This document shows, in pieces, positions 2,959 to 23,775 of a DNA stretch of 41,801 bases. The DNA lies in the NCBI GenBank assembly GCA_046590855.1, contig JBKJTJ010000180.1:1-41801 (forward strand), read 5' to 3'. The stretch's first letter is position 1. The number at the start of each line of letters is the position of its first letter. The notes below the pieces were generated by a model. It worked only from the letters and a program-made list of their open reading frames with translations. It had not been told where the DNA came from and ran no database searches. The DNA comes from Actinomycetota bacterium. Its GTDB lineage: Bacteria; Actinomycetota; Actinomycetes; Actinomycetales; Angustibacteraceae. A program made the position numbers and the translations under genes.

Positions 2959-3072
2959 CCGTCCCCGGTATAGCACGTCCGTCACCCGTGGCCCGGTCCC
3001 TCGGCGCGGTACCCGCTGAAGATCACCATCACCTGGCAGGACAGCGGGCCGGCCGGACGCCAGACTGACGCC

Positions 3073-3465
3073 ATGGACCTCCCCGACGAGCTGATCGCTC
3101 TGCTGCGCCAGGCCAGCACCTGCTACATCGCGACGACGATGCCCGACGGTTCGCCGCAGCTGACCCAGACGTGGGTCGACACCGACGGCGAGCACGTCGT
3201 CATCAACACGGTGCGCGGCTACCAGAAGGACAAGAACATCGCGCGCGACAACCGCGTGGCCGTGTCGGTCAACGGCACCGACAACCCGACGAGGTACTTC
3301 TCGGTGCGGGGGACCGTCGTGGACGTGACGACCGAGGGGGCGGTCGAGCACATCGAGGCCCTGTCGCAGCGCTACACGGGCCAGCCCTATCCCTGGTACG
3401 GCGGGCGCGACCAGCAGCGGATCATCCTGACGATCGCCGCTGACCGCATCCACACCATGGGGTAG
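3073..3465 (+). CDS. PPOX-class (pyridoxamine-5'-phosphate-oxidase-like, probably F420-dependent) small oxidoreductase
   Basis: The 130-aa product has the typical family signature 'LLRQASTCYIATTMPDGSPQLTQTWVDTDGEHVVINT...KDKNIARDNRVAVSV'. Size and layout match Rv1155-type split-barrel proteins. Confidence 0.78.
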   Translation: MDLPDELIALLRQASTCYIATTMPDGSPQLTQTWVDTDGEHVVINTVRGYQKDKNIARDNRVAVSVNGTDNPTRYFSVRGTVVDVTTEGAVEHIEALSQRYTGQPYPWYGGRDQQRIILTIAADRIHTMG

Positions 3466-3607: not shown

Positions 3608-5569
3608 GTGTCCTACCTCAACCTCGGGATCGTCGCGCACGTCGACGCCGGTAAGACCAGCCTGACCGAGCGCCTGCTCTACGAGGCCGGGGTGCTCGAC
3701 GCCCCCGGCAGCGTCGACCAGGGCACCACCCGCACCGACTCGATGGACCTCGAGCGCCGGCGCGGCATCACGATCCGCGCGTCCGTGACCTCGTTCGCGA
3801 TCGGCGACCTGCAGGTCACCGTCGTCGACACCCCCGGCCACCCGGACTTCGTGGCCGAGGTCGAGCGGTCGCTCACGGTGCTCGACGCCGCCGTGCTCGT
3901 GGTCTCGGCGGTCGAGGGCGTGCAGCCGCAGACCGTCGTGATCTGGCGCGCGCTGTGCCGGATCGGCGTCCCAACGGTGCTGATGGTGAACAAGGTCGAC
4001 CGCGCTGGCTCGGACGTGGCGCGTGCTCTCGACCAGGTGGCCCGTCGGCTGACGCCCCACGTGGTGGTCCTCGCCACCGTCGCGGGCGAGGGACGCCGGG
4101 ATGCAGCGGTGCACGCCGTGCCGCTGACCGACCCGACGGTGGTGGAGTCGGTGGCCGACGTCGACGACCGGGTGCTCGCCCGATGGGTCGACGGCGCGCC
4201 CGCCCGTGAGCAGGACGTCCTCGGGGCGCTGCGGCGCGGTGTGCTCGCTGGTGCTCTCACGCCTGTGGTCGTCGGCTCCGCCGCGACCGGTGCGGGGATG
4301 CTCCAGCTGCGTGGGGTGCTCCGTGAGGTGCTGCCCCGCGCGGACGAGACATGCGGCCCAGCTGCCGCAACGGTTTTCGCAGTCGATCGCCACGGCGGCG
4401 GACGGCGGGCCTGGGTGCGGCTGTGGTCGGGCGAGCTCGCGGCGCGCGACCGCGTCGAGCTGCCCGGTCGCCGTCCGTGCCGGGTCACCGAGGTCGCGGT
4501 CAGTGAGGCCGGTGGCCCACGGGTTCGCAGCTCGGCGCGGGGCGGTCAGGTGGCCGTCCTGCGCGGGCTGTCGCAGGTCCGCGTCGGGGACGTCATCGGT
4601 CGAGCACCGGCGCGGCGCGAGCACCGCTTCGCGCCGCCGACGATGCAGGCGCTCGTCGAGCCGGTCGACCCGACGAAGCGTTCCGCCCTGTTCGCCGCGT
4701 TGAGCGAGCTCGCCGGGGAGGACCCGCTGATCGACCTGCGGCTCGACCCGGTGGGCGGCGAGGCCGCGGTCAGCCTGCACGGCGAGGTGCAGAAGGAGGT
4801 CATCGCCGCACTGCTGGACGAGAGGTACGGCGTGCGGGCACGGTTCCTGGCGACGTCCGTCGTGTGCCTGGAGCGGGTGGCGGGCACCGGTTCGTCGATC
4901 GAGCGACTGGGGCAGGACGAGAACCCCTACCTGGCCACGGTCGGGCTGCGCATCGAGGCCGCTGTCGTCGGTCACGGGGTCGAGTTCTCGCCGGGGGTCG
5001 AGCGTGGCAACCTGCCGCCCGCGTTCATCGCGGCGACCGAGGAGGGCGTCAGATCGGCGCTGCGACAGGGCTTGCACGGTTGGCAGGTCACCGACTGCGT
5101 GGTCACGATGACGGCGTCCGGCTACTACCCGCGCCAGAGCCGGCCGCACCAGAAGTTCGACAAGGCCATGTCGAGCGTCGGCGCGGACTTCCGCCACCTC
5201 ACGCCGGTCGTCCTGATGTCTGCGTTGGAGTACGCCGGAACCGTTGTCTGCCAACCGATCGAGCAGATCGATATCGAGGTTCCGGACGCAGCGATCAGCG
5301 GCGTCAGTGCGTTGCTCGGCCGGTTGCGGGGCACCGTGGTGGAGTCGACGTGGCACCATGACCGCACGAGGTTCATCGCGAGGCTGCCGTCCGCGCGGGT
5401 CCCCGAACTGGCCCGAGCGCTGCCGGACCTGACGGGAGGCGAGGCGGTGCTCGTCACGCACCTGGACCACCACGCGCCGGTCCCGGGTGACGAGGACCCG
5501 CCGTCCCGTCGCCGCGCGGGGGTCGACCCGCGTGATCGCGCCTCGTGGTTTCGTGACGTGGCGCGGTGA
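3608..5569 (+). CDS. Tet(M)/Tet(O)/OtrA-like ribosomal protection protein (EF-G-like translational GTPase)
   Basis: G1 'AHVDAGKTS', the RPP hallmark 'GSVDQGTTRTDSMDLERRRGITI', G3 'DTPGH', G4 'NKVD'. Length is 653 aa. GTG start has GGAG 8 nt upstream. Confidence 0.85.
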   Translation: MSYLNLGIVAHVDAGKTSLTERLLYEAGVLDAPGSVDQGTTRTDSMDLERRRGITIRASVTSFAIGDLQVTVVDTPGHPDFVAEVERSLTVLDAAVLVVSAVEGVQPQTVVIWRALCRIGVPTVLMVNKVDRAGSDVARALDQVARRLTPHVVVLATVAGEGRRDAAVHAVPLTDPTVVESVADVDDRVLARWVDGAPAREQDVLGALRRGVLAGALTPVVVGSAATGAGMLQLRGVLREVLPRADETCGPAAATVFAVDRHGGGRRAWVRLWSGELAARDRVELPGRRPCRVTEVAVSEAGGPRVRSSARGGQVAVLRGLSQVRVGDVIGRAPARREHRFAPPTMQALVEPVDPTKRSALFAALSELAGEDPLIDLRLDPVGGEAAVSLHGEVQKEVIAALLDERYGVRARFLATSVVCLERVAGTGSSIERLGQDENPYLATVGLRIEAAVVGHGVEFSPGVERGNLPPAFIAATEEGVRSALRQGLHGWQVTDCVVTMTASGYYPRQSRPHQKFDKAMSSVGADFRHLTPVVLMSALEYAGTVVCQPIEQIDIEVPDAAISGVSALLGRLRGTVVESTWHHDRTRFIARLPSARVPELARALPDLTGGEAVLVTHLDHHAPVPGDEDPPSRRRAGVDPRDRASWFRDVAR

Positions 5570-5740
5570 CCGGGCAAAACCGACAACATGCCGTCGACTG
5601 TTGCCAGATGATCTTGGTCGGTGCTTGCATGGGCGAACTCGACCGAGCCGAACCCGGCCACGCCACCCCTCACCACCCCCGAGTGCCGAGGCGTTGACGA
5701 GCTCCCACCGGCGAGCGTCCGCAAGCGGGGATGTGACGCG

Positions 5741-8700
5741 ATGTCGTTGTGGGACCAGCTGCCCAGCTCGCTGCGCGACGCGGGCGACCTGGATGGGCTG
5801 CGTCCGCTGCTGGACGGGTTGGACGGCACGGGGCCGACCGAGACCACCGACGCCGACGGCACGTGGTCGACGTACACGGCGACGCAGGACCTCACCGGGC
5901 CGCTCTCGCTGGACCCGCGCACGGGCGCGTTCTCGTCGTCCAGCGGCTCGACCGGAACCCCCATCGAGCTGCCCGACCCGCACGTCGGCGTCGAGCTGTC
6001 GTTCCACCTGACCCTCGGTGCGCGAGACGGTGGGTGGAAGGTCGTGCTCGCGGCGCCCTCGGTGCGACTGCGGCTGCCGTTCCTGCGCGGCGCGATGCTC
6101 GACTCGTTCGGCCACCTCCGCGCCGACCCCGCGAACCCGACCGTCGCGTTCACCCTGCCCGCACTGCGACTTCGCGTGCGCCAGCTGGCGGGACGGGGTG
6201 TAGGCGTCGACCTCCTGTCGGCCACCACGAGCGGCAGCGCCGTCGACCAGGTCTACGAGTTCGTCGAGATGAGCCCGCCCTACGCCTTGATCGGGCCCTC
6301 CGACGTCGTCGGTTTCGGCTTTCGCACCGCGGTGCTGGATCTGTCCGGAACCGCCGGCCCGTCCGGCGTCCCGGCTGCGGCGCGGGCGATGCCGACCGAC
6401 TGGCAGGGGCTCTACCTTCCCGAGGTGCGCCTGTTCGTCGCGCCCGAGGGGCTCGAGGGTCTCGCGGTGTTCGCCGGCGTCGAGAACCTGTGGATCGGCG
6501 TCGGCGTCCACGAGGGCGTCACCGGGGTCTTCGAGGCCGAGGTCGTCAACCGTGGTCACGTGCCGACCATCGTCGCGAGGTTCATGACCGCTGCGGGACA
6601 GGCGGTCTCGTTCACCGGCGACACCGCCCTGCTGCCCGAGCACACCACCGTGTACGCCGAGGCGTCCGGGGGGCTCGGCTCGTACGACGTGCGGATCGAC
6701 GCCGCCGGCGCGGTCGCGAGCAGCGACCGCGCCCCGGTCACCACGCCGGCGGCGGGGACCGCGGCCGTCACGATCAGCCTGCTGACCCCCGGGACGTCGA
6801 CCGTCGTCACCTCGCGCACGATCACGGTGACACGCAGCACCGCGGCGGTCGGCACCGGTGCGTCAGCCGGCGACGTCACGCTTCGGACGACCTCGCACGA
6901 GACGGTGGCGCTCGCACTGGTCTCCCGGACCACCACGTCCGTGCGCGTCCGCCTGACCAACGGCGTGAGCGCGACCTGGACCTGGCCGGGCGGGACGTCG
7001 ACCGGCACCTCCGCCGACGTCCCGGTCGTGGCCGGTGCGCCCGTTTCGGTGCAGGCGCAGACGACGGTGGGGCAGGTGCAGTCCCTGGACGCGTACTTCC
7101 GGTACGACCACCCGTTCCCGGCCGAGGGCGGGGACTGGGTGCGCAACCCGGCGAACGTCGGCACCGAAGCGGCGGCGGACGCCCAGCACCAGCCGGCCGG
7201 TGTCTCCTTCGTGACGGACGCCGCCGCCCGGCTGGGCACCATCGGCGCAGCGACCCGGCTGACGGTCAGTGGTTACGCCTCGTACGAGGGGCACGACGAC
7301 TCGGCCACGGTCGCCCACAACCGGAGCCTGAGCGAGCGACGACGAGCTGCCATGCGCACCGCGCTGACCCAGGCTGGGTTCACGAACCTCGCCGACGGCA
7401 CCGCGAACGGTGCGACCGAGGCCCAGAGCCGGACGTCGGTGGATGGTCGCGATGCCCCGCCACCGACGTCCGGACGGTGGTGGCGAGCGAGAGCTGTCGG
7501 CGACGCACCGCCCGCGGCCGTGACCGTCACCGGCGAGCTCCTGCGGCGCGTGGCCACTCCACCGTCAGCCGTCGACCCCACTCCGCCGCGCGCCGCGCCG
7601 CCGGACTGCTTCCACCGGCTGGGCGTCCGCGTCGAGCTGGTGCGCTCGACGTTCGTGCGCTGCGAGGTGTACGGCGAGATCGACATCGAGACGGCGGCCG
7701 AGTCCCAGCTGCGGCGCAAGGGTCAGCCCGCGCTGGGCAGCACGGCCAACCCGGACGACGGGATCTGCACGTTCCTCGCCCGCCTGCGGATCGCCGCTGA
7801 CCAGGGCTCGTGGGAGGTCAGCGCTGAGTTCCGCGCCAAGGACAGCGACCTCGACGGGCTGTGGGAGCGCAGGGACAGCAACACCAACCAGCTGGCGCTG
7901 GACGTCCTCGGCGCGCTCAGCGTCCTCGCCCCGTTGTCGTCCGCGGCGACCGAGCTGTCGCCGGCGGCAGGGGCGGTCGTCGAGCTGGGGTCGCTCGCCC
8001 TGGGAGCCAGCGACCTGATCCACACCAAGCGGTTGACGCTGCGCGGCGCCGAGGTGATCGTCTCTCAGGGCGTGCTGGGCGCCGACGGCATCACCACCGT
8101 GGCGAACCAGGGAACCCAGGTCAGCGTGCTCTTCGACATCGAGGTGGCCTTCCACTTCGACCTGACGATCATCAAGGTCGACCCCGCGAAGCCCATCGTG
8201 ACGCGGTACAAGGCGATCGGCGTCCGCTCCCGCTGGGGCGAGCAGCCCGGCGCGGGTGCCGTCGTCGACTACGTCCCGCTCCCCGTCTTCGACCCCAGCC
8301 GCGGGTACTCCCTCGACATCCCGGCCGGCAGCCTGACCGCCGCACCGCCCCTGGACGAGGTGCTGCGGATCCTGGGCGTCAAGGTCAGCAGGCAGAACCC
8401 GACCTACCTCGAGGTCGAGGTGGGCCTCGGCCTCGACCTCGGCGTGGTCAAGGTCGACACGGTGCGGGTGCGGGCCCGGGTGGACGGGCCACCACTGGAC
8501 CTGCAGCTCACCAAGTTCGGCGCCAGCGTCGACATCCCGAACGTGATCACCGGCCGCGGGTACCTCGCCTTCGACAGCACCGGCTTCTCGGGGTCCTTCG
8601 ACATCCAGGTCATCCCGCTGAAGCTGCGGGCGAGCGCGAGCCTGGCGGTGCACCGCGACCAGGTCGCGGGCGTCACCGGTGTGCTGCTGGGGATCGAGGT

Positions 8701-11700
8701 CGAGTTCCCGGTGCCGCTGGTGCTCGGCAGCTCGGGGCTGGGCCTGTTCGGGCTGATGGCCGGGGTCGGGATCAACGAGGGTCGGGTCGAGCGCACCGAC
8801 GTCCAGGTGCCTGCCCTCGCGTGGCTGCAGGACCAGATGGGCCGGCCCGGCGGCGTGATGGACCCGCAGGGCTGGTCGTTGCAGCCGGGGCACTACGCGT
8901 TCGCCGCGGGGGTGCTGCTCGGCACCCTGGAGGGCGGCTACGTCGTCCACCTCAAGGGCATCGTGCTCATCGAGGTGCCCGGCCCGCGCCTGCTGTTCGT
9001 GATGAAGGCCGACGTGCTGTCCAAGCCGCCGACCCTGAAGGAGCAGCGGACAGCGAGCTTCCTGGCCGTCCTCGACCTGGACTTCGGGCGCGGCACCATC
9101 ACGATCGGCATCGTCGCGCAGTACGAGATCGAGTCGATCCTGAAGATCCGCGTGCCGGTGAGCGCGTTCTTCGACACCAACCACGTCGAGAAGTGGTTCG
9201 TCGAGCTCGGCAGCTACACGGACCGCGTCACCGTCGAGGTGCTCGACGTGATCAGCGGCAGCGGCTACCTCATGGTCCACGGGGACGGCGTGGCGGTCCC
9301 GGGCCTGCCCCCCGTGTCGTCCGGTCTGGGCATCGCCACCGGGTTCCACATCAGCGCGGTGCTGATGGGCAGCAAGTCGATAGGCCTCTATCTCGAGGTC
9401 GCTGCCGGGTTCGACGCCATCGTCGGCTTCGACCCGCCGTTCGTCGCCGGCACCATCTACGCTCGCGGCGAGCTGCGGCTGTTCATCATCAGCATCGGCG
9501 CCTCTGCCGAGCTCACCGTCAAGGTCGGCAAGCGGCTCGAGAACGGCGTGCTCGTCGACCAGCCGTACGTCCACGGCGAGGTCTGCGGTTCGATCGACCT
9601 GTTCTTCTTCGAGATCAAGGGCTGCGTCTCACTGACGATCGGCGACGAACCGGACGACGACCCCGCCGCCAAGCCGCTCGTCGCCGGGGTCAACCTGAGC
9701 TCGCGCAGCCCGGCGCTGGTCGAGGGCAGCGCGACCGGCCGCTCGGTCGACGGGTCGCTCGGCGACGCCCGCGACACTGCCCACCCGAGCCCGGACCCGC
9801 TGCCGACCGTGCCTCTGGACGCCATCCCCGTGATCCGGTTCGTCACGCCGCCCGGAGTCGCCGCCGGGGCGGTGCTGGGCGCGGACGCGTTCGGTGCCAC
9901 CGGGATCGGGGCCAACCCGTGGGCCCGGATCGGCGAGCGCTGGTGGCGATACGAGGTGCAGTCGGTGACGCTGACCGGCACCCTGCTGCCGGCCGACGGG
10001 AAGACCCCTGCCACCTGGTGGACCGGCGTCCCCGCGGGGACCACCGCCCCGATGAGCGCGCTGGCGCTGCTGAACTGGTTGCCGACCCCGTTCTCTCGGG
10101 CGGTGCCGTACGGCGAGCAGCTGACGACGTCGGTCACCGAGCAGTGGGGCACCGTGTGCCACCCGGCCGCGCCCGCCGCCCCCGTCCTGTGGACGTTCGA
10201 CGGCAAGCCGTACGGCCCCAACGGATCCGAGTGGAACCTCGTCGGCATCCCGTGGCCCGACCCGGCCGGGACGGTGCGGTCGGCACCCGTCGAGGCCGAC
10301 CTCGCTGTCGCGGAGCCGTGGCGCACGCACGACACCGCGGCGGATCTGGTGCAGGGCACGACACCGGCGATGGTCGTGGCCGGTGCCGTGCCGTGCACCC
10401 CGGCGCGCGCCCAGTCGATCCGCACGATGTCGGCAGGGCTGGTACGCGACCTGCCTGCCGCGGCGCAGGACCTCGCACTGCCCTTCGACGCGCACGCGCA
10501 GGCGGTGCGGATCCTGCAGGACGGCGTACCGCTCGCCCAGCTCGCGGCGCAGCGGTCGGCGCAGGGGTGGTCGGACGCCGCCTCCGCGGGCGACCTGGGC
10601 TGCCGGGGTGCGGTGCTGCGCTCACCCGAGCACGACCGCACCGAGCCCGCGCCCTACGGGACGCCCGACGACGTCGTGCTGGTCCAGCGCGCCCGGGCTC
10701 GGTCAACGTTCCGCGCGGACGGGCTGCGCGACGCCGTCCGGCTGACGGCGCGGTCCGAGGTGCGTCAGCTGGGGCTGCTGCTCATGGTGCCCGAGCGCGC
10801 CCTCGGTGGGCTGCTGGTGCTGCGGCTCGAGGACTCGACCGGCGCCGTCCGCCGGCACCAGCCCGTGCAGGCCGCCGACCGGATCAGCGCGACGAACCCG
10901 CTGCCGCCGCAGCTGCTCGACCCGACCGGCCCGTGGTTCGACCCGCTGCTGCGCTCGGCGCGGATGGGCGTGCGTGTGGCCTCCGGCGCCGACCCGGCCC
11001 TGACGGCGGTGTGGGTGCGGCTGCGCGACCTGCCGGGCGACATCCGGTCGGTCGTGGTCGGCTGGGACGCCGGCCCGCAGGCGGTCGACCTGCCGGCGTT
11101 CTACGTCGTCGCCGTCGAGGGCCTGCTCGCGGCCGAGGTCGCCCGCGAGAGCTGGGACACCACGACCACCACCCAGAACGTCTCGGCGCTGCAGACCGCG
11201 CTGACCCAGGACCCGGACGACCGGGCGTTGCTGGCCCCCGGCCAGACGTACACCGTCTCGGTGCAGTGGCGGGCGGCGTGGAAGAAGCAGGACGCGCAGC
11301 CGGGTGCCGGCGAGGCACCGGCCTGGCAGCCGTCGCAGACCCAGTCCTACGCGTTCGCCACCGAACCGGCGTCGGCGGCACCCACCGACCTCGGCCCGTG
11401 GCTCCTGGCCACCACCCCGGGCATGGACGACGTGGGTGTGTTCTGCCAGACGCCCGTGCGGATCGCGCTCGCGACCCAGAAGGTGGCCGAGCTGTTCGGC
11501 GCCTACGGCAAGGAGCTGCGCGTCGTCGTCCAGGCCGCGTCGGGCAAGCACCCCGCGCCCCCCGGCGGCACCCCCGGCTCGCCGTGGACGCTGCCCGTCG
11601 GCCTGAGCGCGGAGGTCGCCGCTGCCGCGAAGCTGCACGTGCGGACGCCGTGGGAGCAGACGGTGCGCGACGTGGTCGCCACCGCCCAGGCGCAGCACGA

Positions 11701-12451
11701 GATGCCGTGCATCGACGGCACCGGCAACCGCACCGACCACCTGATCGTCACGCTGCCCTACGACTTCGAACCGCTGACCGACTACCTCGTCGACGTCCAC
11801 TCGGTCGACGTCGGGTCACCGGCGAGCGAGCGAAACCTGGTGCACCGCATCGGTTTCACGACGTCGCGGTTCGCCACGCTGGACGACTTCGTCACCTACG
11901 TCGCTCCGGTCTCTGTGCGCGGCCGGCTGGTGCCGATGCCCGGTGCGCTGACGGCGCTGCCCGACGTCCCGACCGGTGACCAGGTCGACGCCGCCTACCA
12001 GGGCGCCGGGCTCACGGTGCCGCAGGCGCCGCAGTATCCGGCGGTCGAGGTGCTGTGGTCAGGTGACGCCGTTCCCCAGCCGGTCGCCGTGGTGGTCGAG
12101 AGCAGCGAACCACTGTGGCGCTCTCGGGTGATGCCCGCGGTGGTGACGGGGCCGGTCGACGCCGCCGACCCCACGCACCTCTGGTGGGCCGGCGTGCGCG
12201 GTGACTGGCTGACCCTCGAGGCGAGCGCCGCCGCCGTCGGTGCCGGTGACCTGCCGCGTGCCACCGTGACGCGCGTCATCCGCTGTCCCGGGCGGACGAG
12301 GGCGGTCATGCTGCTCGCACCAGGGTCGCGCGGGACGGAGGCGCGGCTGGACCTCGTGCTCGCGGCGGACGACCTGGCCGAGACGACCGAGGTGCGCCGC
12401 ACAGCGGTCCGGGTGCCCCTGGTCGCTGCTCCGTGGGAGGTGGAGGACTGA
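5741..12451 (+). CDS. Giant protein of unknown function (about 2236 aa) with an internal OmpA_C-like module. No signal peptide recognised.
   Basis: A 6.7-kb uninterrupted frame with G/C-rich third positions. ATG at 5741 is preceded by 'GCGGGGA' (SD-like). The 5621 GTG extension adds only a low-complexity 40 aa. 'TVSGYASYEGHDDSATVAHNRSLSERRRAAMRTAL' matches the OmpA/MotB C-terminal pattern. No Walker A, HExxH, RHS/YD or LPXTG seen. Confidence 0.8.
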   Translation: MSLWDQLPSSLRDAGDLDGLRPLLDGLDGTGPTETTDADGTWSTYTATQDLTGPLSLDPRTGAFSSSSGSTGTPIELPDPHVGVELSFHLTLGARDGGWKVVLAAPSVRLRLPFLRGAMLDSFGHLRADPANPTVAFTLPALRLRVRQLAGRGVGVDLLSATTSGSAVDQVYEFVEMSPPYALIGPSDVVGFGFRTAVLDLSGTAGPSGVPAAARAMPTDWQGLYLPEVRLFVAPEGLEGLAVFAGVENLWIGVGVHEGVTGVFEAEVVNRGHVPTIVARFMTAAGQAVSFTGDTALLPEHTTVYAEASGGLGSYDVRIDAAGAVASSDRAPVTTPAAGTAAVTISLLTPGTSTVVTSRTITVTRSTAAVGTGASAGDVTLRTTSHETVALALVSRTTTSVRVRLTNGVSATWTWPGGTSTGTSADVPVVAGAPVSVQAQTTVGQVQSLDAYFRYDHPFPAEGGDWVRNPANVGTEAAADAQHQPAGVSFVTDAAARLGTIGAATRLTVSGYASYEGHDDSATVAHNRSLSERRRAAMRTALTQAGFTNLADGTANGATEAQSRTSVDGRDAPPPTSGRWWRARAVGDAPPAAVTVTGELLRRVATPPSAVDPTPPRAAPPDCFHRLGVRVELVRSTFVRCEVYGEIDIETAAESQLRRKGQPALGSTANPDDGICTFLARLRIAADQGSWEVSAEFRAKDSDLDGLWERRDSNTNQLALDVLGALSVLAPLSSAATELSPAAGAVVELGSLALGASDLIHTKRLTLRGAEVIVSQGVLGADGITTVANQGTQVSVLFDIEVAFHFDLTIIKVDPAKPIVTRYKAIGVRSRWGEQPGAGAVVDYVPLPVFDPSRGYSLDIPAGSLTAAPPLDEVLRILGVKVSRQNPTYLEVEVGLGLDLGVVKVDTVRVRARVDGPPLDLQLTKFGASVDIPNVITGRGYLAFDSTGFSGSFDIQVIPLKLRASASLAVHRDQVAGVTGVLLGIEVEFPVPLVLGSSGLGLFGLMAGVGINEGRVERTDVQVPALAWLQDQMGRPGGVMDPQGWSLQPGHYAFAAGVLLGTLEGGYVVHLKGIVLIEVPGPRLLFVMKADVLSKPPTLKEQRTASFLAVLDLDFGRGTITIGIVAQYEIESILKIRVPVSAFFDTNHVEKWFVELGSYTDRVTVEVLDVISGSGYLMVHGDGVAVPGLPPVSSGLGIATGFHISAVLMGSKSIGLYLEVAAGFDAIVGFDPPFVAGTIYARGELRLFIISIGASAELTVKVGKRLENGVLVDQPYVHGEVCGSIDLFFFEIKGCVSLTIGDEPDDDPAAKPLVAGVNLSSRSPALVEGSATGRSVDGSLGDARDTAHPSPDPLPTVPLDAIPVIRFVTPPGVAAGAVLGADAFGATGIGANPWARIGERWWRYEVQSVTLTGTLLPADGKTPATWWTGVPAGTTAPMSALALLNWLPTPFSRAVPYGEQLTTSVTEQWGTVCHPAAPAAPVLWTFDGKPYGPNGSEWNLVGIPWPDPAGTVRSAPVEADLAVAEPWRTHDTAADLVQGTTPAMVVAGAVPCTPARAQSIRTMSAGLVRDLPAAAQDLALPFDAHAQAVRILQDGVPLAQLAAQRSAQGWSDAASAGDLGCRGAVLRSPEHDRTEPAPYGTPDDVVLVQRARARSTFRADGLRDAVRLTARSEVRQLGLLLMVPERALGGLLVLRLEDSTGAVRRHQPVQAADRISATNPLPPQLLDPTGPWFDPLLRSARMGVRVASGADPALTAVWVRLRDLPGDIRSVVVGWDAGPQAVDLPAFYVVAVEGLLAAEVARESWDTTTTTQNVSALQTALTQDPDDRALLAPGQTYTVSVQWRAAWKKQDAQPGAGEAPAWQPSQTQSYAFATEPASAAPTDLGPWLLATTPGMDDVGVFCQTPVRIALATQKVAELFGAYGKELRVVVQAASGKHPAPPGGTPGSPWTLPVGLSAEVAAAAKLHVRTPWEQTVRDVVATAQAQHEMPCIDGTGNRTDHLIVTLPYDFEPLTDYLVDVHSVDVGSPASERNLVHRIGFTTSRFATLDDFVTYVAPVSVRGRLVPMPGALTALPDVPTGDQVDAAYQGAGLTVPQAPQYPAVEVLWSGDAVPQPVAVVVESSEPLWRSRVMPAVVTGPVDAADPTHLWWAGVRGDWLTLEASAAAVGAGDLPRATVTRVIRCPGRTRAVMLLAPGSRGTEARLDLVLAADDLAETTEVRRTAVRVPLVAAPWEVED
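7087..7440 (+). other. OmpA_C/MotB-like peptidoglycan-binding module embedded in the giant ORF
   Basis: 'LDAYFRYDHP...RLTVSGYASYEGHDDSATVAHNRSLSERRRAAMRTALTQAGF...GTANGATEAQS' follows the OmpA_C pattern (F-FDS-like strand; I-I-G-H-T-D-like strand; N-x-x-LS-x-x-RA-x-x-V helix; G-x-G-E tail). Confidence 0.55.
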
Positions 12452-15400
12452 TGGCCAGGGTCGCCAACAGCTGGTGGTTCCGTGCCGAGGCGATGCGGTT
12501 GGACTGGACCGGTCAACTGCGCCAGCGGATCCAGCTCGGCCAGGGAGTAGACGACCACGACGTCGAGCGGGTGCGCCGCCGCGGTGGCGACGTGCACCTG
12601 TGGTGGGCCTGTGCCAAGGACATCGGTGTGCCACGTGAGCCGTTCACGGTCTGGAGGCGCTCGCCGGGCAGGACCCGGCGGGTCAAGCACACGACGTCCG
12701 GTGACAGCCAGGGCACGCTGATCCGCTGGGGCGCGGTCGAAGCGGTCACCATCGAGGTCACCCTGAGGCCGCAGACGGCGTCCGCCGGCTCGACCCTGCT
12801 GGCGTATCGCGGCGCGGGCACGCTGTGGGACGCCGTGGGTGCGGCCACGACGCCGGGCGGCGGCGACGGCCCACGGGTCGTCGTGGTGCGCTGCTCCGGA
12901 GCGACCAGCGCGCGGCTGGTCAACGGCACCGTGGTGTCGGTGCGGATCGAGACGCTGACCGACGCGGTCAACGACCCGTCGTGGCTACCGCTCGAGGTGG
13001 TCGGACTGCCCGTCGAGCAGCCTTGGCCCGGCAGCGACTACGACACCCGCGAGCAGGGGTTGGTGAGCGCGCCGCTGCCGCCCGCCGAGGCCGCGGTCGA
13101 CCGGCTCCGGCGCGGGACCCCGCCGCTCGGCTGGCCCGCCGTCACCCCGGCCGGCCACCTCGCCCCGCCGTGGGTGGACGCCGACCCCTACGGCGTGGTC
13201 AAGGAGGTGCAGGCCCTGCTGCTGCCCGAGATCGCGTCGATGTACGACGTCGGCACCCCAGAGCCGCGGCAGCACCTGCTCGAGTCGCTGCGTACCGTCG
13301 ACGGCCCGCGACAGGGCTCGCGGACCTCGAGCCTGGGTACCACCGCGGTGCTGCGACCGTTCTCGCTGCTGGCCTTGCCGGCGCAGACCGACCCCCTGAT
13401 GAACCTCGCGACGGGGTTCGGCGCCACCTACTTCGTCGACTCCGGTGACCGCCCGGACGCCTCGATCGGCGGCAGCGACCTGATGGTGACGGCGACCTGG
13501 CGCCGGCCGCCCGCACCGCGTCGCGGCAAGGTCGAGCTGGCCGCGTTCGCGCCGCAGGTCGGCCCGCTGTCGGCCGTGCCGGCCCCGACCAACCTGACGG
13601 CGAGCCGCAGCGGGCTCGTCGGGCCGGCCACGGCGGACCAGCCCTGGCGCGAGAGCGTCCACCTGTCGTGGGACCGGCTGCCCACGACGGCGGCCCTGGG
13701 TCGCGTGGGTGCGGGCACGCTCGCGCGGTACCCCAGCGGGTCGGCCCAGGCGGTGTCGCTGGCCCCGGCGCGCGACGCCGGCGGCGAGCGGCCGCTGACG
13801 CTGTCGCCGGACGGGCCCCCGGATACACCCGGTGCCTCGCGGGTCGCGTTCGTCGACGGTGGGGTCGAGATCCCGGTGCTGAGCGGTGGACGGGACGTCG
13901 GTTACGCGGTGTCCGTCGTCGACGTGCACGGCCTGTGGTCGGCCTGGCGCGACGTCCACTACGTCGGCGACGAGCCAGGCCCTTTGCCCCCCAGGCTGAT
14001 CGGGCTCGACCTGACGACCACGTACGCCGGCTCCACCACCTGCCCGGCGAACCTGGCCCTCGAGGTGGCGCTGGACTGGACCGAACGCACGCCCACGACC
14101 CTGCAGGTCGTCGCGCTGTTCTACCCGATGACCGGCGCCTCGTCGGTGCCGCCCGCGGGTCTCGACCCGTCGACCGCGATGCCGTCGGGGTGCTTCCGCC
14201 GTGACCTCGGGCTGACCTTCGCCGGCGACGTCCCGACCGGTGTGGGGTGCACCGTCACCACCTTGGGCCCGGACGGCGAGCACGCGATGGACCCCGGGCC
14301 CTCGCAGGGCGACGGCGGCCGGCGCTACCGGATGCTCGGCCCGGTGCCGTCGCTGGACTTCACCACGGCCGGACGGTGGGGGGTGCAGGTCTGGCTGCGC
14401 AGCACGCTGGCGGTGGGGTCCAGTCCGACTGAGTACGCGCCCGACACCGCGCACCCGGCCAGGGTCAGTGCGGCCAGTCCCGTTCCGGTGCAACCGATCC
14501 CGCCGCCCGCGCCACCCGGGGTCCCGCTCGGCAGCACGCTGGACGCGAGGGGCTGCTCGCACGTACGCGTGCACTGGTCGCTGCCCGCCGGTGGCGACGT
14601 CCGCACCTGCGTGGTGTGGGAGGTGGCCGAGACCAGCCTGCGCCAGCGTGCGGGCCTCGTCTCGCGCGCACCCGACACCGACTCGCCGGGCGTGCGGCTG
14701 GCCGCCCTGTGGGCCGCGTACGACGCGTTGCCAGCGGCCAAGCAACGGGCCGCGTTCCGTCGGGTGGCCGAGCTCGCCGGCACCGAGCGCTCGCTGGACG
14801 TCCCGCTGCCCAAGGGCTCGACCGACATCCACCTGTTCACGGTCACCACGCAGTCGGCGTCCGGCATCGAGTCGCCCTGGCCGGGCCCTCCGACGTCCGG
14901 GCACCTGCACCTGCAGGCCGCCATCGCCCCGCGGCTGCGCACCCCTACTCAGCCACTCGCGCGCGCTGCGGTGCAGGACGACGGGTCGGTGACGATGTCA
15001 CTGATGAGCGCCAGCACCGTTCCGGTGCAGCAGTTCCAGCTCTACGCGACCCGGTCGTTCGACGCAGCGCGCGACCGCGAGAGCATGGGCCCGCCGCTCG
15101 CGACGGTGCCGGTGACGGCCACCCCGACCGCGACGGACCCGCTGATGGGCTCGCCGATCTACCAGGCGAGCTGGACCGGGACGCTGCCCGCGTCGTGGGA
15201 CGCCTGGTACCTGCGTGCGGTCGCGGTCCCGGTGGCCACCGTTCCTGTCGAGGGCGTGCGCGGGCTGCACTCACCCGCGTCCGAGATCACCACTCTCACC
15301 GTGCTTCCTGCCGGGTCCGACCTCGAGCCGCTCAGCGCCCAGCTGTGGGGCACGGACCACCGCGGGGTGGTGGCGCGCTCATCGACGAGCGCGCCGGCGC

Positions 15401-16158
15401 GGGCCACGGCCGCCGGCTCCCACCGGGTGTCGGCGCTGATCGGTGCTGCGCCGGACGTCGTCCCGCAGGCGAACCTCGAGGACCTGCCTCAGACGGCAGG
15501 CACCACACCGCCCTCGTCCACCGCGAGCCGGATCGAGCGTGGTCCGCGCGCGGCCGGCCGCTCGCCGCTGGTGCTGTGGCTGACCCGGCCGGTCGCGGCC
15601 GACCCGGTGACGGTGGTGCTGCGGCTGACCGACCCGCTGGGGCGGCTGGTCGAGCAGACGGTGACCGTCGCCGGCTGGGTTCCGCCGCCGCCGTGGACCC
15701 TCGAGCTGTCGACCGCCGCGACGCGGGCCACGGGTGTGCTCATCGGGCTGGACACCGACGCGCCGGCCGGCGCGGGCGCCGGTGTCACGATGCGCGTCCG
15801 CGCGGTGAAGTCGCGCCGGTTGCCGCTGCCGGCTGCGCTGACCATCACCGAGCCGGCGCCCGTGTCGATCGACCGGATCAGGGTGCAGCCGCCGCCGCTT
15901 CGTCGCAGCGTCGACCCGCCGGTCGTCGTCACGCCGTGGCGCGGGTCGTCGGCGCTGGACCAGACCTTCGTGCTCGCCGACCTGCCGCGCGGCCTGCCGG
16001 TGTTCGCGAACGACGGCCAGATCCACGCCGTCCGCTGGCGCGGGCCGTTCGCGAGCGCCGCCTACGCGGTGTGGGTGCCGTTCGCGGCGCCGTTCTCGGC
16101 CGAGGTCACCCTGGCAGGGCCGGACGGTCAGAGCGTGACGGCGTCAGTCGTGGTGTGA
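12451..16158 (+). CDS. Large protein of unknown function (about 1235 aa), beta-rich with Ig/FN3-like segments, translationally coupled to the giant ORF
   Basis: ATG 12451-12453 overlaps the upstream stop TGA 12449-12451 (TGATG). A 3.7-kb open frame with G/C-rich third positions. Segments such as 'VHWSLPAGGDVRTCVVWEVAE' look like beta-sandwich modules. No catalytic or secretion motif recognised. An alternative GTG lies at 12433. Confidence 0.8.
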   Translation: MARVANSWWFRAEAMRLDWTGQLRQRIQLGQGVDDHDVERVRRRGGDVHLWWACAKDIGVPREPFTVWRRSPGRTRRVKHTTSGDSQGTLIRWGAVEAVTIEVTLRPQTASAGSTLLAYRGAGTLWDAVGAATTPGGGDGPRVVVVRCSGATSARLVNGTVVSVRIETLTDAVNDPSWLPLEVVGLPVEQPWPGSDYDTREQGLVSAPLPPAEAAVDRLRRGTPPLGWPAVTPAGHLAPPWVDADPYGVVKEVQALLLPEIASMYDVGTPEPRQHLLESLRTVDGPRQGSRTSSLGTTAVLRPFSLLALPAQTDPLMNLATGFGATYFVDSGDRPDASIGGSDLMVTATWRRPPAPRRGKVELAAFAPQVGPLSAVPAPTNLTASRSGLVGPATADQPWRESVHLSWDRLPTTAALGRVGAGTLARYPSGSAQAVSLAPARDAGGERPLTLSPDGPPDTPGASRVAFVDGGVEIPVLSGGRDVGYAVSVVDVHGLWSAWRDVHYVGDEPGPLPPRLIGLDLTTTYAGSTTCPANLALEVALDWTERTPTTLQVVALFYPMTGASSVPPAGLDPSTAMPSGCFRRDLGLTFAGDVPTGVGCTVTTLGPDGEHAMDPGPSQGDGGRRYRMLGPVPSLDFTTAGRWGVQVWLRSTLAVGSSPTEYAPDTAHPARVSAASPVPVQPIPPPAPPGVPLGSTLDARGCSHVRVHWSLPAGGDVRTCVVWEVAETSLRQRAGLVSRAPDTDSPGVRLAALWAAYDALPAAKQRAAFRRVAELAGTERSLDVPLPKGSTDIHLFTVTTQSASGIESPWPGPPTSGHLHLQAAIAPRLRTPTQPLARAAVQDDGSVTMSLMSASTVPVQQFQLYATRSFDAARDRESMGPPLATVPVTATPTATDPLMGSPIYQASWTGTLPASWDAWYLRAVAVPVATVPVEGVRGLHSPASEITTLTVLPAGSDLEPLSAQLWGTDHRGVVARSSTSAPARATAAGSHRVSALIGAAPDVVPQANLEDLPQTAGTTPPSSTASRIERGPRAAGRSPLVLWLTRPVAADPVTVVLRLTDPLGRLVEQTVTVAGWVPPPPWTLELSTAATRATGVLIGLDTDAPAGAGAGVTMRVRAVKSRRLPLPAALTITEPAPVSIDRIRVQPPPLRRSVDPPVVVTPWRGSSALDQTFVLADLPRGLPVFANDGQIHAVRWRGPFASAAYAVWVPFAAPFSAEVTLAGPDGQSVTASVVV

Positions 16159-16740
16159 ACCGGGGGTCCTGATCCCGTCGAGGACGAACCCGAGCAGCCG
16201 CTGGTTCTGCTCCAGGGTGCCGCCGCGGGCCATGCACATCCCGCCGACCAGCTGCATCAGGTCGACGGCGTCCAGGTCGGCGCGCGCGGCACCGCCCGCC
16301 TGGGCCCGGGCGAGCACCGAGCCGGCGGCCCCCGTGATGCTCTCGCGCAGCTGGATCGCGAGGTCGGGGCTCTTCTCGAACGCCTCGTGCAGCTCGGTCA
16401 GCAGGGTGCGCTTGGCCTGGGCGTACCGGACGAAGCCCTCGAGCCAGGCGACGAGCGCCGGCCACGGCTCGGTCGTTGCGGCGAGGTCGGCGGCGAGCGT
16501 GACGAGCCCCTCGACGTCCTCGCGGTAGACCGCCTCGACCAGGTCGATGCGCCGCGGGAAGTGGCGGTAGAAGGTGCCGGCGCCGACGTCGGCGGCCTTG
16601 GCGATCTCTTCGACGGTGGCCGCGCTGCCGCGGGCGGCGAACACCTCACGGGCGGCCTCGATCAGCCTCGCTCGGTTGCGGTGGGCGTCGGCGCGCAGCG
16701 GCCTAGCCGCCACCGCCGTCCGCTCGCGCGCCTCGCCCAT
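16144..16740 (-). CDS. TetR/AcrR-family transcriptional regulator (198 aa from ATG at 16740)
   Basis: N-terminal HTH 'RNRARLIEAAREVFAARGSAATVEEIAKAADVGAGTFYRHFPRR'. Divergent from an MFS gene. The upstream part of the ORF to 16896 would overlap the MFS start and lacks family features. Confidence 0.9.
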   Translation of the reverse strand: MGEARERTAVAARPLRADAHRNRARLIEAAREVFAARGSAATVEEIAKAADVGAGTFYRHFPRRIDLVEAVYREDVEGLVTLAADLAATTEPWPALVAWLEGFVRYAQAKRTLLTELHEAFEKSPDLAIQLRESITGAAGSVLARAQAGGAARADLDAVDLMQLVGGMCMARGGTLEQNQRLLGFVLDGIRTPGSHHD

Positions 16741-16755
16741 GCCCAGCCCTTTCGG

Positions 16756-16805
16756 TTGCAGAAGCGGAGTGATCCTCCGTATAGTTCCGGAAGAAGCCTC
16801 CGCTT
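16756..16805 (+). promoter_or_regulatory. Putative sigma-A-type promoter of the MFS gene, with palindromes in and around the spacer that are probably the TetR operator
   Basis: TTGCAG (16756-16761), an 18-nt spacer, then TATAGT (16780-16785). The spacer contains the palindrome CGGAG-TGATC-CTCCG (16765-16779). An outer inverted repeat is AAGCGGAG (16762-16769) / CTCCGCTT (16798-16805). Confidence 0.45.
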
Positions 16806-16841
16806 GGTCCCTCACCTTAGTCCCCGCCGAGAGAAGCAGCC

Positions 16842-18347
16842 GTGTCCTCTGACACCACCACCGCTCCCTGCGCCCCGCCGGACGCCGCGAGCGCACCTCG
16901 CCGCCTCCGCCGTCCCGCCCACGCGACGATCGTGCTGGCCGTGATCCTGACCTGCCAGCTGATGGTCGTGCTGGACGCCACCATCGTGAACGTCGCCCTG
17001 CCGCAGATGCAGCGCGCGCTCGGCTTCTCGCCCGCCGGCCTGTCGTGGGTGCTGAACGCCTACACGCTGACGTTCGGCGGCCTGCTGCTGCTCGGCGCGC
17101 GGGCCGGCGACCTGCTCGGCCGCCGCCGCACCTTCATCGCCGGCATCGCCGTGTTCTCGCTCGCGTCGCTGCTCGGTGGTTTCGCGCCGACCAGTGGGCT
17201 GCTGCTCGCGGCCCGTGCCTTGCAGGGCGTCGGAGCGGCGCTGGCGGCGCCGTCGTCCCTGGCCCTGCTGACGACGATGTTCAGCGCGCCTCGCGACCGG
17301 GCCCGCGCGCTCGGCCTGTTCACCGCCGTGTCGGTCAGCGGTGGGGCGCTCGGCCTGATCCTGGGCGGCACCCTCACCCAGTGGGCGTCGTGGCGCTGGG
17401 TCATGTTCGTCAACGTGCCGATCGGCGTCGTCGTGATCCTCGTCGGCCTGGCGGTGCTGCCCGAGACCGGACGCCGGTCGGGCACCTTCGACCTGCCCGG
17501 TGCCGTCTTCTCGACGCTCGGCATGACCGGCCTGGTCTACGGCTTCGTCCGGGCGGCGACCGCGGGCTGGGCCGACGTCCTCACCCTGTCGTCGTTCGCC
17601 GCAGGCGCTGTGCTGCTCGCCGCATTCGTCGTGGTCGAGAAGCGCACCGCACAGCCGATCACGCCGCTGTCGCTGTTCGCCGACCACAGCCGCACGATCG
17701 CGAACGTCGCACGCGGACTGTTGTTCGCCGGCATGTTCGGCATGTTCTTCTTCCTCACCCAGTTCCTGCAGGACGTGCTGGGCTACAGCTCGCTGGCCAC
17801 CGGCTTCGCGTTCCTGCCGATGCCGGTGACGGTCTTCGTCGTCTCGCAGGCGAGCAGCCGGGTGCTGATGAACCGGGTCAACGGCAAGGTGATGATGCTG
17901 GTCGGCATCGCCCTGGCGGTCAGCGGGTTCACGTTGGCCAGCACGCTCGGCCCGGACTCGACGTACCTGCGCGTCGTCGCGAGCCTACTGCTCTTCGCCT
18001 TCGGCAACGGACTGTCGTTCATCCCGCTCACCCAGGCCGCGCTCGACGGCGTGCCCGCACGGGACGCCGGTGCGGCGTCCGGCCTGGTCAACGTGACCCA
18101 GCAGCTGGGTGGCACGCTCGGCGTCGCGGTGCTCGTCACCGTCTTCGGCCACTACGCAGCAGCGGCCGGGGTGCTCGAGGGAGCGTCGGCCGTCGCCCAG
18201 GCGCACCACGTCTTCACCGCCGGTGCCTCACACGCCTTCGCTGCCTCAGCGCTGTTCCTCGTCGCGGCCTTCGCCCTCGTCGCCGCCGGCGTCCGGGGCT
18301 CGGGCCAGCACGCGCCCGCACCCGCCGCGGATCACGTCGAGGTCTGA
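16842..18347 (+). CDS. DHA2 (EmrB/QacA-type, 14-TMS) MFS drug-efflux transporter
   Basis: 'LDATIVNVALPQMQRALGFS...WVLNAYTLTFGGLLLLGARAGDLLGRRR' is the canonical DHA2 N-terminus. 501 aa with many hydrophobic segments. Divergent from the TetR gene. Confidence 0.9.
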   Translation: MSSDTTTAPCAPPDAASAPRRLRRPAHATIVLAVILTCQLMVVLDATIVNVALPQMQRALGFSPAGLSWVLNAYTLTFGGLLLLGARAGDLLGRRRTFIAGIAVFSLASLLGGFAPTSGLLLAARALQGVGAALAAPSSLALLTTMFSAPRDRARALGLFTAVSVSGGALGLILGGTLTQWASWRWVMFVNVPIGVVVILVGLAVLPETGRRSGTFDLPGAVFSTLGMTGLVYGFVRAATAGWADVLTLSSFAAGAVLLAAFVVVEKRTAQPITPLSLFADHSRTIANVARGLLFAGMFGMFFFLTQFLQDVLGYSSLATGFAFLPMPVTVFVVSQASSRVLMNRVNGKVMMLVGIALAVSGFTLASTLGPDSTYLRVVASLLLFAFGNGLSFIPLTQAALDGVPARDAGAASGLVNVTQQLGGTLGVAVLVTVFGHYAAAAGVLEGASAVAQAHHVFTAGASHAFAASALFLVAAFALVAAGVRGSGQHAPAPAADHVEV

Positions 18348-18385
18348 CCCGCCGTGCAGAGCCCGGCATCTCGCGCTTCTGCGCG

Positions 18386-18802
18386 GTGAAGTCGTGGACG
18401 GTCGTCGGACGCAGTTGACAGTACTTTCGAGGCCGGACCGCCCGGTGCACGCACCGACGGCGACCATGGGTTCTATCTCTGCCCCAAGCCCAGCGGGCCT
18501 GCGCCGCACTTCCATAGCTCGCTCGCCGAGGCGTTCTACGTCCTCGCCGGCACGGTGCGGCTGTACGACGGTGAGCAGTGGGTGGACGCCGGCGCCGGCG
18601 ACTTCCTGCACGTGCCGGCCGGCGGTGTGCACGGGTTCTGCAAAAGTCCGGTGAGCCGGCGTCCATGATGATCCTGTTCATCCCCGGTGCGGCACGGGAG
18701 GCGTCCTTCGAGGGCACCTTCGAGATGGGCCGCACCGGCGTCCGGCCCAGCGACGCAGAACTGGCCGACTTGTACGCCCAGCACGACACCGTCTGGGTGT
18801 GA
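18386..18802 (+). pseudogene. Cupin-domain gene remnant, frameshifted with an unclear or damaged 5' end
   Basis: The cupin core 'GPAPHFHSSLAEAFYVLAGTVRLYDGEQWVDAGAGDFLHVPAGGVHGF' is read in one frame (about 18420-18638). The expected continuation '..KSGEPASMMILFIPGAAREASFEG...HDTVWV*' is in the -1 frame, ending at 18802. The break is near 18636-18645. No ATG or GTG opens the core frame after the stop at 18387. Confidence 0.55.
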
Positions 18803-18819
18803 GGGTGGAAGCGGTGCCG

Positions 18820-21876: not shown

Positions 21877-22064
21877 GCCGGCAGCTTGTCACGTGGTCCC
21901 CCCGAATCGTCGTGAAAACGGCACAACGGGCAGCCGTGGGCAGCATGTCCGGAACGTGCCGCAGCGACCTGCGGGACTGCCCCTTGCCTAATCGTCCGTT
22001 TTGGGCAGGATGGGGCCCGTCCCCGGAGCACATCCAGCAGGGGGGACCTCACCGAGGAGGATCC

Positions 22065-23702: not shown

Positions 23703-23740
23703 CCCGCCAAACGGCGTCGCACCACTGACGCCATGGCGAC

Positions 23741-23775
23741 CGGACGGTCTCGTGGGCTTTGCACGAGGCCGTCCG
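23741..23775 (+). terminator. Stem-loop downstream of the hydrolase-like gene (candidate intrinsic terminator, no U-tract)
   Basis: CGGACGGTCTCGTG (23741-23754), loop GGCTTTG, then CACGAGGCCGTCCG (23762-23775). This gives a 14-bp stem with one G-U pair, starting 39 nt after the stop at 23702. Confidence 0.45.

Follow-up and report, generated by a model that had tools for sequence, protein, structure and literature searches.

A translationally coupled pair of giant genes, of DUF6603 and an unnamed partner family, as a candidate cell envelope-acting system

Introduction

Intimin/invasin and the two-partner and chaperone-usher secretion systems bring together a wall-binding module, a β-domain and a chain of immunoglobulin-like (Ig) domains. 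Here we describe a locus that is similar to them in concept, with these parts split over two coupled genes, A and B, on contig JBKJTJ010000180.1 of an Actinomycetota bacterium (Angustibacteraceae; assembly GCA_046590855.1). All 41,801 nucleotides analysed are referred to below as the window. Unlike the systems named above, which are not homologous to it, the A-B pair lacks signal peptides and occurs in hosts without an outer membrane.

Several other described families and structures share single features with this pair. Over its full length, protein A is homologous (49-68% identity) to proteins with scores of 45-49 bits for the Pfam family DUF6603 (PF20248), an uncharacterised domain of unknown function (DUF) whose model spans about a quarter of A. 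Residues 492-575 of A align with the core motif G-x-A/T-(D/S)...N..LS.RRA of the OmpA_C-like domains (OmpA, Pal, OprF, YfiB, MotB), and the domain in 6u83 shares the "GYAS" variant with A. On the other hand, the similarity is sub-threshold, the module is part of a signal-less giant protein, and the canonical Asp is replaced by Ser. The best Foldseek matches to the core of A are giant outer-membrane barrels (LptD, PapC/FimD, Deinococcus SlpA; E=4e-5 to 1e-3), and SlpA, like A, possesses a wall-binding domain besides a huge β-domain. However, TM-scores of 0.11-0.31 and an rmsd of 17.9-28.5 Å, the missing signal peptide, the monoderm hosts and the tight turns on both sides of the sheet set A apart from these barrels. 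Protein B is a signal-less string of FN3-type domains, as are the FN3 regions of phage tail-tip proteins (lambda gpJ, T1/T5), and a tail-fibre N-terminal domain or Baseplate_J/gp6 is present in the third genes of distant A-B relatives. Unlike phage tail appendages, the A-B locus contains no tube, sheath, tape-measure or lysis genes, and its own clade has no third gene.

An earlier note on this DNA, made from the sequence alone, had proposed a large structural assembly associated with the cell envelope. We tentatively favour the reading that A and B form a 1:1 structural, non-enzymatic complex that would act on the cell envelope and have affinities to phage tail appendages. Purifying selection keeps about 10 kb of coding sequence intact in this pair, and the cassette is present in at least 279 species-level genomes and 737 protein clusters from Actinobacteria, Proteobacteria and haloarchaea. 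None of its proteins has been assigned a function, has a relative of solved structure or is mentioned in the literature that could be searched.

Results and Discussion

The gene pair and its junction

Gene A (5741..12451, plus strand) encodes a giant DUF6603-family protein of 2236 aa, and gene B (12451..16158, plus strand) a protein of 1235 aa with about ten FN3/Ig/MG-like β-sandwich domains and small helical inserts. The window, with 72% GC, has an actinobacterial character, and in GC content the A-B pair does not differ from the genome. As the earlier note had stated, both open reading frames (ORFs) are uninterrupted and rich in G/C at third positions, the values for codon positions 1/2/3 being 0.72/0.54/0.94 in A and 0.72/0.60/0.92 in B. 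With a third-position GC of 0.94 and 0.92 and a second-position GC of 0.54-0.60, A and B are real genes, unlike many shadow ORFs of this GC-rich window. Furthermore, comparison with a 91% identical metagenomic relative (locus L090) resulted in dN/dS values of 0.14 for A and 0.15 for B; both genes are therefore under purifying selection and are being maintained, and a disruption of the frames, considered earlier as a possible objection, was not found.

These data also bear on the notion that A and B are left over from a decaying prophage or tailocin and no longer have a function. Such a remnant, which would account for the phage tail-derived domains found in relatives (see below), is hardly conceivable any more: the frames of 6.7 kb and 3.7 kb are intact and keep their lengths in more than 100 clusters, the dN/dS values are ~0.15, conservation extends to the coupling junction, and there are neither phage genes nearby nor phage homologues. 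The selection and conservation data effectively refute this reading.

The coupling junction (12435..12453, plus strand) consists of a Shine-Dalgarno-like sequence, GGGAGGTGGAGG, in the last codons of A and of the overlap TGATG (12449-12453), in which the TGA stop of A and the ATG start of B share one base. This overlap, seen earlier in the window, proved to be a general feature of the family: it is 1 nt long in 64 of the 71 scorable junctions and 4 nt long in 2/71, and spacers of 1-3 nt are present in 5/71. The junction sequence CCGTGGGAGGTGGAGGACTGATGGC is near-identical across distant genera. The last residues of A, APWEVED (window positions 12428-12448, with the same position in related loci), are encoded by codons that spell the Shine-Dalgarno sequence of B, TGGGAGGTGGAGG. 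The C-terminal peptide APWE(V/E)ED is retained even in members that are only 27% identical to A, and the ending APWE(E/V) persists in 21 distant members. Since the conserved APWEVED codons also encode the Shine-Dalgarno sequence of B, the protein end of A and the ribosome-binding site of B may constrain each other, a double constraint on the same nucleotides. Judged by this architecture, A and B are a co-expressed, stoichiometrically coupled two-gene unit; the suggestion that the pair is co-expressed is indeed borne out by the conservation of pairing, gene order and stop/start overlap across the 71 loci.

Distribution and autonomy of the cassette

When one genome of each GTDB species was scanned, 279 loci encoding a relative of A were found, of which the best 79 were analysed. 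In every one of these best 79 of 279 loci with enough downstream DNA, a B homologue is located directly 3' of A on the same strand. A phmmer search with residues 596-1795 of A against 1.84 billion representatives returned 737 protein clusters (counted at 50% identity) at E<=1e-3 and 267 at E<=1e-30, and the full-length members among them have either 2200-2600 aa or ~1750-1800 aa. More than 120 clusters of full-length A homologues have a constant length of 2230-2290 aa; their hosts include Intrasporangiaceae/Dermatophilaceae, Microbacterium, Cellulomonas, Kribbella, Jiangella, Pseudarthrobacter and Acidimicrobiia. Many of these homologues contain PF20248, and "DUF6603 domain-containing protein" is a frequent annotation. 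For B, about 40 homologue clusters (1200-1300 aa) were found among the matches listed, to which a second, profile-based search added almost nothing; B homologues contain no Pfam domain at all.

Gene A and gene B are an autonomous, strictly ordered cassette. Clustering of the flanking ORFs revealed no other family in more than 8 of ~80 loci, and in a Pfam scan of 133 non-redundant immediate neighbours no family occurred in more than three cases, the neighbours being ordinary transporters, regulators and enzymes. Neither the clustering nor the Pfam scan of these 133 neighbours thus revealed a conserved third partner in Actinobacteria. The adjacency of A and B across Actinobacteria and other phyla, which the earlier note had proposed to check, is conserved, including in Rhizobium, Paracoccus and Haloferax.

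No characterised family matches A or B in Pfam, NCBIfam, PADLOC, PHROGs, PDB sequences or phage genomes, so the full-length match to a known family that had been envisaged as a counter-argument did not appear. More specifically, no defence family of PADLOC-DB v2 was found for A or B at E<=0.1, there was no match for either in PHROGs, tblastn of both proteins against 50,697 phage genomes gave no match, and neither did a search with A among 2.9 million IMG/VR viral contigs.

Domains and predicted structure of protein A

Direct searches with A in Pfam, NCBIfam, PADLOC, PHROGs and PDB sequences resulted in nothing but a faint OmpA-like signal at residues 513-573, and hmmscan reported no PF20248 match for the window's own A at E<=1. 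With PF20248, three orthologues that are 50-67% identical along their entire length (P0056, P0071 and P0008) reached 45-49 bits and a fourth, P0117, 29 bits, the Pfam gathering cut-off being 27 bits. In the orthologues the match corresponds to the β-sheet core (residues ~885-1140 and 1296-1409), and 7/21 distant family members match the model as well. As its full-length homologues exceed the PF20248 cut-off, A can be regarded, by transitive full-length homology at the sequence level, as a member of DUF6603. The earlier impression of "almost no recognisable domains" is thus correct for direct scans, which are near-empty, and incorrect in so far as the orthologues exceed the DUF6603 (PF20248) threshold. 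No paper mentioning DUF6603, PF20248 or IPR046538 (which we take to be the InterPro accession of DUF6603) was found in full-text searches.

Conservation along A, measured as column entropy, is highest at residues 160-280 and 840-1320 and lowest at 286-600 and 1560-1800. The β-rich N-terminal domain (residues 81-285; 5981..6595, plus strand) is among the most conserved parts by this measure, and the family hidden Markov model (HMM) matches this region in the Paracoccus relative. It is followed by a variable T/S/V-rich stretch of low conservation (residues ~286-450; 6596..7090, plus strand), which may be Ig/PKD-like. One distant A relative contains a PKD domain, at a position within the protein that the Pfam summary does not specify. 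DUF6603, PKD and OmpA were the only domains found when fusions were sought in 21 distant members.

The OmpA_C-like module (residues 492-575; 7214..7465, plus strand) is of the variant "GYAS...N..LSERR". The best match of the A family profile in the PDB was 6u83 (E=1.3e-3, sub-threshold; A 492-554), other OmpA-like matches extended to ~575, and every match, among them OprF, Pal and YfiB, was an OmpA-like domain; the OmpA_C-like segment that had been recognised in gene A is thereby tentatively supported. Residues N527, L530 and R534 of the module are invariant in an alignment of 82 sequences. Pfam gave no PF00691 match for the window's A, and A relatives matched Pfam OmpA (PF00691) with E=2e-3 to 2e-6, below or near the cut-off.

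The AlphaFold2 model of A covers residues 596-1795 (35 sequences, mean pLDDT 76, pTM 0.40). In this model, residues 623-1320 (7607..9700, plus strand) are predicted to form a giant antiparallel β-sheet domain, which includes the DUF6603 match, a glycine-rich hydrophobic strand pair (993-1011) and the most conserved region of A according to column entropy. It is modelled as a single antiparallel β-meander of more than 30 strands, 10-22 residues each, with tight turns and a pLDDT mostly of 80-93. Three short hydrophobic helices (residues 717-756; 7889..8008, plus strand; H122-161 in the model) are located within the β-domain. Hydropathy revealed only marginal peaks in A, at 993-1011 and 718-760 (1.7 and 1.44 at the helices), and nothing at the N-terminus of A or of B. 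In a Foldseek comparison with the PDB, the core of A matched LptD (4e-5), PapC/FimD ushers and SlpA barrels, and the ApoB100 belt at low probability. The TM-scores were 0.07-0.31, which makes these matches a fold-class resemblance and no fold assignment. No credible match was found among BFVD viral structures. An outer-membrane β-barrel of the LptD/usher class was rejected, because A has no signal peptide and the best TM-score was 0.31 versus the ~0.5 needed.

The same matches could be taken to mean that the pair binds or carries lipid or another hydrophobic cargo inside the cell, with the DUF6603 sheet as a large hydrophobic groove or belt (AsmA-like, as in the N-terminal domain of LptD, or of the ApoB type) and B as a spacer. 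Besides LptD and the low-probability β-belt of apolipoprotein B100 among the Foldseek matches, this is consistent with a sheet that has tight turns on both sides instead of porin-like long loops and has hydrophobic helices packed within. Nevertheless, we regard a lipid carrier as very unlikely: the TM-scores are very low, the ApoB probabilities are 0.2-0.3, there is no link to lipid-metabolism genes, and the tail-fibre and baseplate domains of the relatives as well as the OmpA-like module would be left unexplained.

The C-terminal half of A contains four cysteines (Cys1473, 1552, 1621 and 1990) that are invariant in the 82-sequence alignment. The first two belong to a Trp-rich region (residues 1360-1560; 9818..10420, plus strand), which was modelled at moderate confidence. 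The conserved C-terminal region, ending with APWEVED, comprises residues 1830-2236 (11228..12448, plus strand), and the family HMM matches it in the Paracoccus and Haloferax relatives. The protein as a whole is strongly acidic, with a net charge of -62.

Predicted structure of protein B and absence of enzymatic and export motifs

Direct searches with B in Pfam, NCBIfam, PADLOC, PHROGs and the PDB gave no usable match, and its profile matched a single PDB entry, RNF128, at chance level. The AlphaFold2 model of B covers residues 1-1200 (40 sequences, pLDDT 84, pTM 0.55) and predicts a chain of about ten β-sandwich domains with small helical inserts (211-320, 727-767) and one disordered loop (1123-1164). 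Foldseek matched it to FN3/Ig/MG strings, i.e., gp130/OSMR (2e-12), complement C3, mastigoneme and the lambda and T1 tail-tip proteins (2e-7 to 5e-6). Model and Foldseek thus agree with the Ig/FN3-like stretches suspected earlier in gene B, and the structural modelling recommended at that time points to a β-sandwich string for B and, for the core of A, to a giant β-meander with fold-class matches only. The ends are the most variable parts of B, especially residues 1100-1235 (15748..16155, plus strand; pLDDT <50 at the loop 1123-1164). Sliding identity and entropy revealed a gradual divergence there and no cassette-like swap.

Two further classes were rejected. A bacterial alpha-2-macroglobulin/complement-like protein would fit the resemblance of B to the MG strings of C3, but there is no CxEQ motif in A or B and no sequence match. 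A polymorphic toxin (Rhs/YD, LXG) is contradicted by the absence of a YD motif, the gradual divergence of the B C-terminus, and the lack of a conserved immunity-like small ORF downstream.

A regular-expression check of A and B found no Walker A, HExxH, HKD, LPXTG, YD, CxEQ or lipobox motif. Furthermore, neither protein has a Sec/Tat signal peptide or a convincing membrane anchor, and signals are absent in the proteobacterial relatives as well. The motif absences listed earlier (Walker A, HExxH, HKD, RHS/YD, LPXTG, signal peptide) are therewith reproduced, and so is the general idea of a large structural assembly, as A and B, in the light of their models and without a catalytic motif, look structural rather than enzymatic.

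A picture close to the one preferred in the earlier note is that of a surface structure that the producer exports and carries itself, such as an adhesin, a sheath or an S-layer-like tether, in which A would be anchored in the wall through the OmpA-like domain and B would point outward. In fact, the order of OmpA_C-like module, Pro-rich linker and huge β-domain in A is that of wall-to-barrel tethers such as SlpA, FN3/Ig strings like that of B are typical of surface proteins, A is acidic, and its four invariant cysteines could form disulfides. We nonetheless consider this picture distinctly unlikely: A, B and the proteobacterial relatives all lack a Sec/Tat signal, a lipobox, a sortase motif and a transmembrane helix at the N-terminus, no dedicated transporter is linked to the genes, the monoderm hosts have no outer membrane to hold a barrel, and the superfamily is also represented in a haloarchaeon, which has no peptidoglycan.

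Distant relatives and third genes

Distant relatives of A were found by tblastn against plasmids. The megaplasmid of Rhizobium tropici CIAT 899 encodes one with 30% identity over 85% of A, and on Paracoccus aminophilus pAMI4 a 2554-aa "outer membrane protein" related to A is followed by a 1114-aa hypothetical protein. In Mycetohabitans rhizoxinica (pBRH02; L084 5147-17691), the order is rearranged, with genes for a 1322-aa B-like protein, a PLD protein with intact HKD motifs and a 2337-aa DUF6603-like protein. This A relative contains a ConA-like lectin domain (3keto-disac_hyd) and no OmpA match, and its genes are located on a conjugative plasmid of a fungal endosymbiont, with toxin-antitoxin genes, a HEPN/nucleotidyltransferase pair and an integrase nearby. 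Haloferax mediterranei pHME322 (L085 9706-22819) encodes an A-like protein (1858 aa), a B-like protein (1370 aa), whose gene overlaps the first by 4 nt, and a third protein (1142 aa), which contains Baseplate_J (E=2e-12); no sheath or tube genes are present near this trio. The B family matches the second Haloferax gene by hhalign (probability 97%, E=8e-11, 642 columns), so the A-B pairing is common to bacteria and an archaeon. Note also that the halocin H4 gene is located about 10 kb downstream of the Haloferax trio.

A clade whose members are 34-37% identical to A (L003, R. tropici, L088, L089) always has a third gene, C, encoding 1087-1125 aa. In this distant three-gene clade, gene C was located at L003 20974-24333, L086 19453-22716, L088 20665-24042 and L089 20591-23938. 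The N-terminus of the C protein matches PDB 8jov, "putative tail fiber protein" (E=1.3e-6), for which no paper was found in a literature search, and 86 phage records contain tail-fibre or baseplate-wedge genes that match this N-terminal region. The C-terminus is a PLD-like fold in which the HxK catalytic residues are replaced. A C-type gene is absent from the window and from the best 79 actinobacterial loci.

A Baseplate_J domain hidden in A or B was ruled out by hhalign of both families against the Haloferax Baseplate_J protein (probability <1%). Likewise, a phage tail or contractile injection system proper (extracellular contractile injection system, type VI secretion system, tailocin) was rejected, as searches in PHROGs, in phage genomes and, for A, in viral contigs revealed no homology to phage structural proteins and the neighbouring genes are unrelated.

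The contexts of the relatives bring up a role in anti-phage defence by abortive infection, with A-B as sensor or scaffold, the DUF6603 sheet damaging the membrane and the PLD partner being an extra effector in some clades. The cassette is autonomous, consists of two or three genes and is patchily distributed in variable genomic contexts; the Mycetohabitans relative, including its intact HKD PLD, is on a plasmid beside toxin-antitoxin, HEPN/nucleotidyltransferase and integrase genes; phage structural domains have been domesticated in relatives; and a type IV restriction enzyme is encoded 2.7 kb downstream in the window. However, PADLOC found no match, the domains usual in sensors or effectors, such as NTPases or nucleases, are missing from the cassette, and the 133 non-redundant neighbours are ordinary metabolic and regulatory genes without enrichment of defence or mobile-element functions. 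The PLD fold of the three-gene clade has lost its HxK catalytic residues, the restriction enzyme represents an independent insertion absent from L090, and the GC content of A-B equals that of the genome. On balance, a defence cassette appears fairly unlikely.

A possible envelope-acting complex

The tentatively favoured 1:1 structural complex could work as follows. Proteins A and B would be made in the cytoplasm in approximately equal amounts through translational coupling. A would be the platform, carrying a glycan-binding module that varies between clades (OmpA_C-like here, a ConA-like lectin in the Mycetohabitans relative), and its amphipathic DUF6603 β-sheet domain of ~700 residues would engage or insert into a membrane. 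B would be an extended stalk of FN3-type β-sandwiches, whose ends are the most variable parts between relatives. The cassette is a member of an old superfamily spread over Actinobacteria, Proteobacteria and haloarchaea, in which other members have an additional third subunit with a module known from phage tails (a tail-fibre N-terminal attachment domain or Baseplate_J). In view of these third subunits, the analogy that we consider most likely is a binding and penetration appendage similar to a phage tail tip or baseplate, which would have lost, or never had, tube and sheath. The contact between A and B, their arrival at the envelope, the membrane contact by DUF6603 and the target, i.e., the envelope of the own or of another cell, are steps that we infer.

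Several observations weigh against such a complex. A third gene is missing from the clade of the window, and no phage protein was similar in sequence to A or B; their Foldseek matches are of fold-class level only (TM 0.07-0.31), and about 40% of A (1-595, 1796-2236) lies outside the structure model. Flank clustering and the scan of the 133 neighbours revealed no secretion, lysis or assembly genes beside A-B. Neither a signal peptide nor a clear transmembrane segment was found that would account for a route to the envelope. The position of the aspartate that contacts diaminopimelate in Pal/OmpA is taken in A by an invariant serine, and with this replacement peptidoglycan binding by A is not assured. 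The occurrence of homologues in monoderm and diderm bacteria and in a haloarchaeon argues against a role tied to one type of envelope.

In its broadest form, the proposal would be that A-B, with the optional C, is an ancient and so far unrecognised envelope device of bacteria and archaea without tube and sheath, combining a giant β-sheet of new fold (DUF6603), an FN3 stalk and evolutionary ties to phage tail appendages, and serving in a new way of attacking or adhering to other cells or in phage defence at the membrane level. This appears possible, if doubtful. If an envelope-acting device were confirmed, it would be a new kind of machine among the ways in which cells touch, puncture or defend membranes; DUF6603 would receive a role, and its unnamed partner family a first description. 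In our assessment the system belongs to no characterised kind, with the qualification that one of its halves is already listed as a DUF and that its function is a proposed one; note that many conserved giant proteins of unknown function exist. Activated sludge is rich in some of the hosts (e.g., Ca. Phosphoribacter and other Dermatophilaceae), so existing metaproteomes should allow the A-B proteins to be detected.

Neighbouring genes in the window

The intergenic leader of A (5570..5740, plus strand) contains a GGGGA ribosome-binding site at ~5727-5731. It had been described as a lower-G+C region of the system's own; its GC content of 67% is indeed below the window average (72%), if slightly, and a comparison of 13 orthologous upstream regions revealed nothing conserved besides the Shine-Dalgarno sequence and the start codon. 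Rfam and promoter/terminator scans of the leader were empty, with neither an Rfam family nor a sigma-70-like consensus promoter.

The gene upstream of the leader encodes an EF-G-like translational GTPase (3608-5569, plus strand), a homologue of Otr(A)/Tet-type ribosomal-protection proteins that scores 596 bits on tet_protect, under the equivalog cut-off of 775 bits. A link between this GTPase and the pair had been suggested earlier and does not hold. The GTPase gene, a PNPOx-like gene (2974-3465) and a part of a PAS-GGDEF gene are missing from L090, the closest relative; the GTPase is not common to any of ~80 related loci, flank families that include a window gene occur in at most five loci, and no neighbour family exceeds 8 of ~80. 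The absence from L090 marks the GTPase as a variable accessory gene and not as a partner of A-B, and, the adjacency not being conserved, an operon of A-B with the upstream GTPase was rejected.

Downstream of B, a TetR regulator gene (16144-16896, minus strand), which is also present in L090, overlaps with its own end the end of B by ~15 nt and is divergent from the gene for a DHA2/EmrB-type MFS efflux pump (16842-18347, plus strand). The L090 alignment spans most of the pump region (to ~18295), yet no MFS gene was called there. The stretch from ~18300 to 24000 has a lower GC content (65-69%) and is missing from L090, which suggests an inserted island. It comprises the gene for the type IV methyl-directed restriction enzyme (PLD-helicase-DUF3427; 18820-21876, minus strand; PADLOC mREase_IV, 1153 bits) and an Abhydrolase_10 gene (21912-23702).

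Further downstream, a RecD-RecB-RecC string (26304-35298, minus strand) is encoded, with RecD at 26304-28649, RecB at 28172-31633 and RecC at 31528-35298. The longest ORFs overlap heavily, including that of RecC with a divergent PAS-GAF-SpoIIE gene starting at 34919, and the true starts of the Rec genes are probably located further downstream. In Intrasporangium flavum, the A-B pair adjoins genes for AdnAB-like helicase-nucleases instead. Between the variable island and recD, the window carries a DUF222-HNH endonuclease gene (24614-25891, minus strand), of a type that is often repeated in actinobacterial genomes.

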